Translations under genes and position numbers: made by a program | Notes under the pieces: model-generated | What the model saw: only the letters and a program-made list of their open reading frames with translations | Database searches by the model: none | Told to the model about the DNA's origin: nothing | Shown: in pieces, positions 59,111 to 61,895 of the stretch | Layout of the letters: the number at the start of each line of letters is the position of its first letter | Numbering within the stretch: the first letter of the stretch is position 1 | IMG/VR virus record: IMGVR_UViG_3300025270_000009 | Coordinates: 1-64,000 of that record | Length of the DNA: 64,000 nucleotides | Direction: 5' to 3' (one strand) | From: a virus | Taxonomy: Duplodnaviria; Caudoviricetes

Positions 59111-60099
59111 TTCACAATTACTCCTTCTGTCCTGTTGAGGCGAACTATATAAGAACGAGTTTTCAAATAAAACCCCTTGTTTTTTCTTTTAGAGCTTCAA
59201 AACCACGAATTTGCGCATTTTGTTGATAGATAACTGTCAATTTTCGGAATCTAAACCATTGATGGTAAAGGTGTTTTTAATTATTTCTGGAAAAGCGGCA
59301 ATTTCTTGCCGAATGGGTATTTTTTAATCTGTTCGGGCTGTAACAAAATGTGACAGTGCGAATTTTTGTTATCCGTACACGCCTAACGTTTTAACAATTA
59401 TGCTCTATAAGTATTACTCCTATCATATCTACGTCTGTCTATAGGGATGAGTTGCAGCGAATTATCACACGGTTATTACCTAACATTTGTATATTGTGCA
59501 TTTCTTTGTTTTTTAAGCGTCTTTTGGTGATTTCGGGTTAAAACTCACTTAAGTGAGTGTTTCGTTGTAGTCACTTAAGTGATTAGCCTGTTCTATAAGG
59601 GTTTTGGCGATTGTCTAACAAGTGCATTCATTAACTTTTCTTTTTTCTGACTTCGGCAATGGGTCAAGTAACGCTTCTCTGCAGCCCTTGTCAGTTCGTT
59701 CTGAGAGTCGGGTGGTCTGGTTCAAATTTATTGGTTAAGCGCCTTAAACTGGTGCAACCAGTTCTTTTCAAAACTTTACACTTTTGTGACTGCGGCCAAT
59801 GCCACGAATTGACAGCCGGCTTTGAGCTTTTTGCTATACGGGTATAAGAGTCGATAACCTGGTGAGGCGGAAATTTGCCTAATTCCGTCGACCGGGTGAT
59901 TTGGCTTGCTGTTTTGATTTGGCTGCTCGGGGAATTTTAGGCGTTTGGGTATAAGGGTGAGTTTTCTGGTAGGCGGAAATTTGGGTATAAGGGTGAATTT
60001 TTGATTGGCAGAAAATTTTGATTCCATCGGGGTCACGGCAGCTGAAAATCTCTAGGACTTTCAGTACCCGATTAAACTCTAATCATTCAATCGTTTTAA

Positions 60100-60231
60100 T
60101 CAATTCAGCATCATAATGCTATTACAAACAACAATCCCCGAAACGATCAAGCCGACAACGGATAATAAAGCGGCTTGTTTTAGTTGTTTATTGCGCTCTC
60201 TGCGCTTGATTCTCTTACTATAACGGCTCAT
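60100..60231 (-). CDS. Small basic membrane protein (43 aa)
   Basis: Manual translation MSRYSKRIKRRERNKQLKQAALLSVVGLIVSGIVVCNSIMMLN; GGGAG RBS; ATGA overlap with the upstream ORF. Confidence 0.55.
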   Translation of the reverse strand: MSRYSKRIKRRERNKQLKQAALLSVVGLIVSGIVVCNSIMMLN

Positions 60232-60335
60232 AAAAACGCTCCCGATGACATATAAGCTAGAGTAAAAGCAAACGGAACACCGACAACAACGAATAAAACG
60301 AATTGAGCGGCTTTCTTAGCGGTTTCTTTAATCAT
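60228..60335 (-). CDS. Small membrane protein (35 aa)
   Basis: Manual translation MIKETAKKAAQFVLFVVVGVPFAFTLAYMSSGAFL; CGGAG RBS. Confidence 0.5.
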   Translation of the reverse strand: MIKETAKKAAQFVLFVVVGVPFAFTLAYMSSGAFL

Positions 60336-60392
60336 TGCGAACACTCCGACCGATGAAAAGAAAGAGCGGCACAGAATGCCGCTCTGTTGCTC

Positions 60393-61070
60393 TTACTTGA
60401 TATTGAATGCGGCTTTAAGCGTATTAAGCTTTTTAGTGTCCGCTGTCTCAGTCTCTAAAATACCGCCCCGACCGATCCAGTTGCCGAGCCCGATAAAAGC
60501 AAGTGACTTTAAAAACTCACGGCTTTGTGTCGCTGTCTTGTTGTCAATATGCTTTTGCAGCTTATCGACCGTGATCGCTTTCTTGTCGAAATTCTCTAAA
60601 CAAAAACGGATCGCTTTTTCAAAGTTCGACAATTGCGGGTTGTATGTTTGCCCGTTCGCTTGTCGGGTTGTGTTCGCTTGATGTTTCGCTTTTTTCAGTG
60701 CGTTTTCTACGGTTTCACCGTGAAGAATGAAACATAAAGCGCTCATTTTTCCGTAGTTGTTGCGCTTTGCTTGCTCTGGATTTTTAGCGTGTTGTAATAC
60801 GTCCGCTACTTTACCGGCAAAAGTGTAGTAGTTGTGTTGAGTAGCGGCTCGCTGTATAGCGTCAAAGTCGGCAGCGCTTTTGTCGGTTTCACTGATTTTT
60901 TGCGCTAGAGCTTCACGCTGCTTTGCTTGCTCTGTTGCAAACTCTGCAAAGCTCGGCTTTGTCTCTTCTGCTTTTTTCGCTGTCTGTTTGCGAGTAGCGG
61001 TTTTTTTCGCTGCTGCTTTTTTAGCGGTTTCTTTTGCTTGAGTTGCTTTAGTGTTTTTACGTTCTGACAT
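60393..61070 (-). CDS. Basic protein with histone-like Lys/Ala N-terminus
   Basis: AKETAKKAAAKKTATRKQTAKK; own promoter/operator (61145) and terminator hairpin (about 60363-60385). Confidence 0.75.
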   Translation of the reverse strand: MSERKNTKATQAKETAKKAAAKKTATRKQTAKKAEETKPSFAEFATEQAKQREALAQKISETDKSAADFDAIQRAATQHNYYTFAGKVADVLQHAKNPEQAKRNNYGKMSALCFILHGETVENALKKAKHQANTTRQANGQTYNPQLSNFEKAIRFCLENFDKKAITVDKLQKHIDNKTATQSREFLKSLAFIGLGNWIGRGGILETETADTKKLNTLKAAFNIK

Positions 61071-61895
61071 AATAATTACTCTCTAAGTTTGATTGATTTT
61101 AAGCTGTATCGGCTCGGCTCTTTGTGCCGTGTCGATGATTCTTATATTACAACGCTGAGATATTCGATCAAGTGCTTTTTATAGTTTTTTTTAATAAATT
61201 TGATTGTTTGATTACTTTTTAATCATTAGTATGTTTTTTAGTCATTCAGACAATAAATATAAAGTTTTTGATTTTTTTCTATTGTATTTCAGCTAAAGCC
61301 GTGATAGTAACGCACGCACGTTAAATAAAAGTGCGAATCCTCGATGAGAACACTCCTTATCCTCAACCACAGCCGTCACTTCTCTATACAGAATTCCAAG
61401 GACAAGCCCTCTCCCCTATGCTAATACAGCCTTTCCCTAACCCTGGCACAGCTCTCCCTGGCCATTCCTGTTGTCACAGCGCCAAGGTAACCAAGGCTGT
61501 TTTCTACAAATCCAAGGAAGCTCAGGTTTGCCCACGCTAACGCAGCCTTTCCCAAGTTTTACCAGGTCAGGCACTATATAGACCAAGGCAACCTTGGAGC
61601 CGGTGTGTGCTTACCAGTGGTCGGTCTATATCCCTACGCTAACGCAGCCATTCTTAAAATTTGAGAGGATTGCCTGAAAAGGCGTGGCCGGCCAATGATA
61701 ACGAAGATAACCAAAAGGACCGGCCGGCCACGATTGCCCGAAGGCAATTAGGGTTGGAGCGCTACTGAGTAAACTGAAGTAACAAAGAGAGAATGAAACC
61801 TCAGTAACGCCCCAAAAGTGGCGAGAAGGTGTAGACTGGACAGTAGTGCAATGTGTGGGAAACTGTCTACACCTTCTCTGAAAGAGTGACCACCA

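Follow-up and report, generated by a model that had tools for sequence, protein, structure and literature searches.

In phage T7, the leading region carries gene 0.3 (Ocr) as the first gene behind strong host promoters, and its product is made before sensitive DNA is exposed. On the scale of whole phage genomes, Kupczok and Bollback reportedly described, in 2014, the avoidance of restriction sites and protospacer-adjacent motifs (PAMs). T5 and BF23 are vulnerable to restriction-modification, CRISPR and Ssp systems only through sites in their first-step-transfer DNA (PMC10644984). The Mom enzyme of phage Mu has a GNAT fold and places its mark on adenine within a short degenerate word (PMC7261163, PMC13219725). 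In phages, ParB-like proteins also serve to activate thymine dioxygenases, which modify DNA bases after replication and in a sequence-selective manner (PMC13229309). On the host side, a 3-nt word, CCA, has been described for a single defence, the SspABCD-SspE phosphorothioate system (CpsCA) found in marine Vibrio (PMC9646914). Here, we analyzed a 64,000-nt stretch of virus DNA (positions 1 to 64,000 of IMG/VR record IMGVR_UViG_3300025270_000009; the window hereafter), in which an island at 60055..61338 is almost free of the trinucleotides CCW and WGG (CCA, CCT, TGG and AGG). Our literature searches found no published description of such a local word purge.

Results

An island purged of one word

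On the plus strand, the island is bounded by AGG at 60054 and CCT at 61339. A first-pass annotation, made from the sequence alone, had reported no CCT or AGG and only two CCA/TGG between these positions, and our recount of the plus strand agreed: CCT and AGG number 0 against 30 expected, and the two sites left are CCA at 60477 and TGG at 60777. As the annotation had also claimed, both lie in a TCCAG context and one of them (60477) is a Trp codon, which belongs to the gene of a 225-residue protein. CCG and CGG were said to remain common, and they do (44 occurrences, 1.4 times expectation). The rough prediction of several dozen CCW/WGG sites was likewise sound, as ~64 are expected in 1282 bp from the 3-mer frequencies of the remaining genome and 32.1 from the dinucleotide content of the island itself (Markov-1). 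At the latter expectation, the Poisson probability of two or fewer sites is ~7e-12 by our own arithmetic. CCW and WGG are the sole abnormal trinucleotides of the island, all others occurring at 0.4-2 times expectation.

A codon-preserving shuffle and genome-wide counts had been proposed as checks, and the depletion held under both. When the synonymous codons of the 225-residue gene were permuted among themselves (1000 trials), 20.2 sites were expected, with a minimum of 12, compared with the 2 present; with the codon usage of the genome, the expectation was 30.7 +/- 4.1. Counts in ten control genes were near or somewhat under expectation, none approaching the depletion of the island. Across the whole genome (101,852 bp), the longest CCW-free gaps (562, 423 and 300 bp) are all adjacent at the island, the next longest is 149 bp, and the island is the only one of its kind. 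The depletion covers both strands, coding and non-coding DNA, and the ribosome-binding sites, which read AGAGAG, CGGAG and CGGGAG instead of AGGAG, just as first described. A depletion that extends to both strands, to non-coding DNA and to ribosome-binding sites means that the reader of the word acts on DNA. Shuffle, strands, non-coding DNA and conservation (see below) agree with the earlier proposal that selection keeps this segment free of one motif; the purge is real, highly significant, selected at the DNA level and conserved.

Organization of the island and its flanks

The purged stretch coincides with a single transcription unit, whose genes all lie on the minus strand and which is flanked by arrays rich in the banned word and by conserved CCCTTATAC repeats (Table 1). 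It is one complete host-type unit, comprising an AT-rich tract, a promoter, the gene of a basic protein, a terminator and the genes of one or two tiny membrane proteins. The promoter/operator motif TCTCAGCGTTGTAATAT/TCTCAGYGYTGTAATAT has six copies in the window, where 0.18 would be expected, which suggests, at the level of sequence, one regulon that includes the island promoter. The five other places with this type of promoter/operator have normal CCW content.

The 225-residue protein (isoelectric point, 9.8) begins with a disordered Lys/Ala-rich tail (residues 1-37), followed by a helical domain; its C-terminus adopted a winged-helix-like fold in a structure model with a predicted local distance difference test (pLDDT) score of 70. 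In this model, the protein looks like a DNA binder. A Foldseek search of the model against the PDB returned nothing at E <= 0.001, and the top rows, below significance, were PCI and MarR-type folds combining helices with a winged helix. Neither this protein nor the other island proteins belong to any Pfam, PHROG, PADLOC or NCBIfam family. The genome holds no paralogue of the 225-residue protein, which also had no match in viral_contigs and none by tblastn in phages. A DNA search of 59000-62500 against phage and plasmid collections gave no match, Rfam gave nothing significant over 57500-64000, and no tRNAs were found.

The conservation of the non-coding element just past the island exceeds that of the island genes themselves, and the conserved flank pattern had no match in viral_contigs or metagenome_contigs. 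On the promoter side, the first-pass annotation had described very dense CCW past the right edge, and we counted 115 sites per kb there against a genome mean of 50. The same zone carries 6 of the 23 CCWWGG sites of the genome; it is conserved in loci L001 and L002, and a GCCAAGG array occupies the same place in L009 and L010 (for these relatives, see below). Altogether, 18 of the 23 CCWWGG sites lie within 61.4-65.6 kb, as four arrays in the 4.2 kb upstream of the island, and five CCWWGG-N3-CCWWGG palindromes are found at 61482, 61583, 62609, 63836 and 65348. The palindromes are probably binding sites of a dimeric protein, and this protein is possibly one of the ParB_N proteins encoded by the replicon. 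The banned word CCW is half of the CCWWGG palindrome.

Table 1. Positions in the window of the island, its flanks and the genes discussed in the text
Feature	Position	Strand	Remarks
RPA-like Rep	11376-12356		
ParA	12615-13340		
Dam-family N6-adenine DNA methyltransferase (PF05869)	21379..21969	-	Sole DNA methyltransferase recognised
GNAT-like protein, 293 aa	52885-53766	-	Module upstream of TerS/TerL (whole module 52885..55780)
ABC ATPase	53766-54437	-	Same module
ParB_N protein	54430-55131	-	Same module
ParB_N-like protein	55124-55780	-	Same module
Non-coding element just past the island	59842..60056	-	Strongly conserved; CGGGTACTGAAAGTCCTAGAGATTTTC, then CYCTTATAC(CC) repeats
43-aa open reading frame	60100..60231	-	Basic N-terminus, hydrophobic C-terminus; ribosome-binding site CGGGAG; window and L001 only
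38-aa hydrophobic open reading frame	60228..60344	-	Probable ATG start at MIKET; ribosome-binding site CGGAG; conserved in L001, L002, L003
Intrinsic terminator	60363..60385	-	3' of the 225-aa gene; conserved in 4 of 4 loci
Gene of 225-aa basic protein	60393..61070	-	Ribosome-binding site AGAGAG
Sigma-70-type promoter	61144..61172	-	TTGAT..., spacer, TG-n-TAATAT; overlaps motif TCTCAGCGTTGTAATAT; read from sequence
AT-rich non-coding tract	61173..61338	-	Upstream of promoter; CCW-free; outer end TTTAACGTGCG... conserved in L001-L003
CCW-dense zone	61339..61660	.	115 sites per kb; three ~100-bp repeat units; CCWWGG and CCWWGG-N3-CCWWGG palindromes
Four CCWWGG arrays, part within window	61396..63850	.	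Arrays continue to 65.6 kb (G000 65615)
Motif TCTCAGYGYTGTAATAT copies	22006, 50405, 52858(+), 61144, 62539, 63392		61144 is the island promoter

Related islands at the same position

The first-pass annotation had named equivalent islands in relatives as a further check, and such islands exist. Homologues of the 225-residue protein at 96, 73 and 58% identity (L001, L002 and L003, respectively) lie in cassettes with the same purge, which we group with the window as lineage A. In L002 and L003, the single remaining site is an unavoidable Trp codon, and every site tolerated in a strictly purged island reads TCCAG. Sites are tolerated when they are alone, or when they lie 300 bp apart on opposite strands. 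Across 40% protein divergence, many synonymous changes have accumulated, none of which makes the banned word. The L001 island additionally contains a 500-bp insertion (9300-9990) with a second copy of the promoter, the gene of an acidic 108-aa protein and a terminator, none of which contains CCW; the extra gene (isoelectric point of its product, 4.6) has 0 sites against 14 expected, and its product could, from its sequence, be an anti-restriction-like DNA mimic. Because the purge is found in the extra gene as well and persists through deep divergence, the trait belongs to the position or the unit and not to one gene. The same persistence excludes a one-off transfer or mutational event. At 49% identity (L008), the cassette is mostly purged; at 32% (L009/L010), it is unpurged, yet the GCCAAGG array is kept upstream.

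An unbiased scan for islands over 62 TerL-relative loci yielded one further island, in L012, at the same syntenic slot but with another word: ~800 bp are nearly without CC/GG (3 against 29 expected). The protein encoded inside (193 aa) lacks Pro and Trp altogether and has a single Gly. This lineage B (UFOVP26-type: L012, L075, L079 and L081) has proteins with 0 Pro, 0 Trp and 1-2 Gly throughout, and orthologues from freshwater samples, 68-80% identical, have retained the purge. A purge that is near total and that reshapes the amino-acid content of a protein implies a strong effect per site. No homology between the proteins of lineages A and B was detectable, profile-profile comparison being not significant, and the lineage-B model (pLDDT 43) was too poor for structure comparison. 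In the syntenic 1.5 kb of Salmonella phage SSU5, at ~95.26-96.76 kb of its record, AGG/CCT occur 3 times against 17.9 (Markov-1) or 33.7 (genome density) expected, unlike CCA/TGG, which are enriched. Three related GG-containing words are thus avoided at one syntenic position in marine, freshwater and enteric phages. The occurrence of related words across such hosts, together with a purge bounded by the transcription unit, favours a reader carried by the phages. Within the DNA covered, no comparable island was seen in phage nickie, L009/L010, the Aeromonas plasmid pKAM329_1 or ~50 other TerL-relative loci, a negative that is limited to short words, since words of more than 3 nt (e.g., 4-5 nt) fall below detection in 1 kb.

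In lineages A and B alike, the purge begins just upstream of the promoter and stops just past the terminator or stop codon of the unit, limits that match the prediction of a requirement for clean transcription. The surroundings are also shared in part: CCWWGG sites cluster upstream of the islands in both lineages, CCCTTATA-type repeats border the island of SSU5, on the side where the window has them too, and the L012 island is followed by one ACCCTTATAC copy.

Further observations were made at these loci. In pKAM329_1 of Aeromonas caviae (L082), IS5 and IS1 are inserted at the expected island slot (430-2718). The SSU5 locus (L074, SSU5 85000-103299) has 0 CCWWGG in 18.3 kb against 17 expected, which looks like classical restriction-site avoidance, and four ACCCTTATA-type repeats surround its annotated repressor gene (L074 11758-12400).

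The replicon and its DNA-acting genes

The replicon is an SSU5-like phage-plasmid from marine metagenomes. Its TerL and capsid proteins are closest to those of Pseudomonas phage nickie, Stenotrophomonas and Rhizobium phages, Salmonella phage SSU5 and ~1000 plasmids, with major capsid protein identities of 48% (SSU5) and 52% (nickie). TerL falls within the T5/nickie/SSU5 clade and matches 994 plasmids of about 100-115 kb, mostly non-mobilizable, with the best match in Aeromonas (59.6%). In addition to Rep and ParA, the replicon encodes a siphovirus-type structural module and DnaE, CobS/T-like, gp32, ligase, DnaG, DnaB, RNR, ThyA, dUTPase and SbcCD-like proteins. The gene order helicase (-)/ParB/ParB/ABC/~293 aa/TerS/TerL is common to the window, nickie, SSU5 and Aeromonas plasmids.

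The ParB/ABC/GNAT module that the first-pass annotation had pointed to is present: it comprises two ParB_N proteins and an ABC ATPase, plus a protein of 293 aa for which the Atlas model matched both fusion clusters of ABC_tran and Acetyltransf_1 (TM 0.70) and GNAT clusters. The 293-aa window protein had no Pfam match, and its SSU5 homologue had a weak one to Acetyltransf_10 (E = 0.069). The module is conserved and syntenic in all relatives examined, and in SSU5 it corresponds to SSU5_125-129. A second candidate for DNA marking, by family membership, is the PF05869 methyltransferase (Table 1); profile searches found PF00145, PF01555 and PF01702 absent. Two genes resembling 2-oxoglutarate-Fe(II) oxygenases lie beside the tail-fibre genes (26359-26889, minus strand; 24961-25611, plus strand), one of which had a weak Tet_JBP match below the cut-off (E = 0.004) and may encode a DNA-base oxygenase.

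IMG/VR classes the record as linear and without end repeats. The assembly and two long Logan contigs are continuous across both island edges, and contig depth over the island in run X2 is 4.7 compared with 7-9, not doubled. Homologues of T5 A1/A2 gave no match at E <= 1. The distance from the contig start to the gene downstream of it is 175-430 bp in L003, L008, L009 and L010 alike, and that from the start of the nickie record to the syntenic gene is 250 bp. The start of L003 is the exact island edge (the end of the AT-rich tract), and L009 and L010 (1-150), which come from different runs, start at the identical base in the GCCAAGG array, 426 bp upstream of the homologous gene. Such shared starts may mark a true end of the DNA molecule or a point at which the assembly graph breaks. 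Elsewhere, ~40-nt sequences at G000 ~69612-69663 and 71464-71503 (L006 17612-17663 and 19464-19503) are repeated in the genome, and short-read contigs of several runs break at the ~40-nt repeats near 69.6 and 71.5 kb.

Discussion

Overall, we propose that the family's own ParB-ParB-ABC-GNAT module, which is predicted to mark DNA, has the banned word as its target and that the cassette stays unmarked; we put the probability of this reading at roughly 40%. The reader of the word would, most likely, travel with the phage family. In the putative mechanism, the ParB-like proteins would load at the CCWWGG arrays abutting the island, and the module, encoded 4.3 kb from the island beside the terminase genes, would put a covalent mark at a short GG-containing word late in infection. 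The cassette would then be the only unmarked part of the incoming chromosome, and host RNA polymerase and regulators would read it normally right after entry. DNA marking by the module, CCW as its target and the need for one unmarked unit are our inferences. The first-pass annotation, whose interpretation is partly supported, had taken the segment to be the first injected or first expressed and had offered either modification by the phage itself or a host defence that recognizes the motif. Both are still the leading explanations, and the related words in three settings tip the choice toward a factor carried by the phage, since such words are better explained by a homologous enzyme of the phages whose specificity drifts than by host defences that are unrelated to one another.

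We also considered a wider version of this proposal, which is more doubtful than the proposal for the window. Here, the whole SSU5-type superfamily, that is, phage-plasmids of ~100 kb including plasmids of Salmonella, Klebsiella, Yersinia and Acinetobacter, would covalently mark its DNA at a 2-3-nt GG word through ABC-GNAT and keep one word-free unit per lineage, to be read as ordinary DNA on entry. The specificity of the ParB-loaded ABC-GNAT system would drift between lineages (CC, CCW, CCT), and the regulatory unit would be kept clean even at the cost of Gly, Pro and Trp.

Several points weigh against the marking proposal. The modification of this DNA and the function of ABC-GNAT are predictions. 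The module is also present in nickie, L009 and the Aeromonas plasmid, where no island was detected (a 4-5-nt word would escape). Moreover, CCW content is normal in the replication genes and other early genes, although these must also be read from the incoming DNA.

The best-surviving alternative is escape at the leading end of the chromosome, as in T5 first-step transfer or with T7 gene 0.3, although we consider it unlikely. The cassette would enter first, without the target of a cutting or nicking host defence, and its product would then protect or admit the rest of the chromosome. T5 and BF23, vulnerable only through first-step-transfer sites, provide the precedent (PMC10644984), and a 3-nt defence word (CCA, Ssp) is known in marine Vibrio (PMC9646914). 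The TerL of the replicon belongs to the T5/nickie/SSU5 clade, the island adjoins the packaging module, and it lies between repeat arrays and a conserved, repeat-rich non-coding element (59842-60056) that would parallel the T5 injection stop signal. On this model, the strong promoter would read inward. L001 adds a small acidic protein under its own promoter, four contigs and the nickie record begin just upstream of the gene or of the syntenic one, and one tolerated site fits a nickase. However, the assembly and the long contigs cross both edges, the depth in run X2 is unlike that of a terminal repeat, A1/A2 homologues are absent, and the promoter class is also found at five other units. The dense zone upstream would be equally exposed unless the DNA end lay exactly at the edge. 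Additionally, CCT is purged as fully as CCA, hence the word is not the known Ssp word, and GG-type words in Salmonella, freshwater and marine hosts would require coincidence.

An improbable alternative is self-immunity to a frequent-cutting nuclease or nickase of the phage's own, which would shred host DNA early, when the cassette is present and must lack sites. A 2-3-nt word suits a genome-shredding enzyme, for which chlorovirus Nt.CviPII, acting at CCD, and T5 A1 offer comparisons, and ParB_N domains can act as nucleases. Constant selection in each infection would explain both the near-total purge and its persistence across biomes, and lone sites or opposite-strand sites 300 bp apart are tolerated. 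How T5 DNA escapes A1 is itself an open question (bioRxiv 10.64898/2026.04.02.716235). However, no such nuclease was identified in or near the island, the 225-residue protein looks like a DNA binder, and the rest of the genome, with its normal CCW content, would need separate protection, for example by delayed entry.

It is less probable still that the region is kept free of CRISPR PAMs and thus without usable protospacers. The known PAMs are CC for type I-F, CCN/CCW for types I-A/I-B and NGG for Cas9; they are read on duplex DNA on either strand, and the CC/GG ban of lineage B equals the I-F/NGG PAMs. T5, moreover, can be targeted by CRISPR only in its first-step-transfer DNA (PMC10644984). 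However, lineage A tolerates and even enriches CCG (44 occurrences, see above), full avoidance of CC/GG being confined to lineage B, and SSU5 enriches CCA; neither suits a CC PAM, and the CRISPR system of Salmonella is of type I-E. Outside the island, the genome still offers more than 5000 targetable sites, and any single site would be under weak selection, at odds with a purge that reshapes amino-acid content.

We give very little weight to a zone free of primase sites beside a replication origin, in which lagging-strand priming would be absent for ~1.3 kb next to iteron-like repeats. Primases do read trinucleotides (GTC in T7, CTG in E. coli), the phage encodes DnaG- and DnaB-like proteins, and iteron-like repeats and AT-rich DNA flank the island. 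However, the Rep gene is 48 kb off and CYCTTATAC repeats were not found near it; the purge tracks the edges of a transcription unit, the dinucleotide ban of lineage B is not primase-like, and the benefit of such a zone is not known. The idea that the island has no function, being foreign DNA of odd composition or the product of a local mutational signature such as that of a CC-context deaminase, would fit its sharp edges and its GC content (40%, under the genome's 45.6%), but it is by now largely refuted, as only CCW is abnormal among the 3-mers, CCG is spared, the Trp codon is retained, and the purge affects both strands and non-coding DNA and has held through 40% protein divergence.

A ban on a three-letter word within one transcription unit is the footprint of a word reader, be it a modification, a nuclease or a defence. 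If the reader is the marking module, a function would be assigned to a gene set carried by about a thousand clinically common plasmids, and phage genomes would gain a new design rule. If it is a nuclease, the finding would bear on a long-standing puzzle of T5, namely the survival of the DNA that is first to reach the cell. The weaker version of the island (AGG/CCT) in the cultured Salmonella phage SSU5 makes the question testable at the bench.

Comparison with known systems

With the first-step-transfer DNA of T5 and BF23, the island shares a short host-transcribed cassette, strong promoters, an adjoining repeat-rich non-coding element and the same broad TerL clade. T5 first-step-transfer DNA is also naturally poor in the targeted sites (PMC10644984). 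However, A1/A2 are missing here, the cassette measures ~1.3 kb instead of 10 kb, and what is purged, essentially completely, is a 3-nt word, whereas T5 lacks a few 6-bp sites. In contrast to the gene 0.3 product of T7, the main protein of the island is basic and winged-helix-like and not an acidic DNA mimic; only the extra gene of L001 encodes an acidic protein.

The resemblance to Mom of phage Mu lies in a phage-borne GNAT-type protein beside late packaging genes and in a target with ~3 specified bases, but here an ABC ATPase and two ParB_N proteins accompany the GNAT-like protein, and Mu has no described word-free cassette. In the ParB-dependent systems, the partner is an Fe/2-oxoglutarate dioxygenase and the words are NTC and NTG, compared with a predicted ABC-GNAT partner here. 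The Ssp system occurs in marine Gammaproteobacteria, but cutting by SspE at CCA itself is unproven, and the other lineages ban CC or only CCT. As an avoided target, Ssp (CCA/TGG only) was ruled out by the equally complete purge of CCT/AGG (0 against 30 expected).

The avoidance of restriction sites and PAMs over whole phage genomes is alike in that selection removes short words read by DNA-targeting systems. Those known effects are partial, whereas the purge described here is local, confined to 1.3 of 102 kb, and near total, and in a sister lineage it is strong enough to remove Gly, Pro and Trp from a protein.

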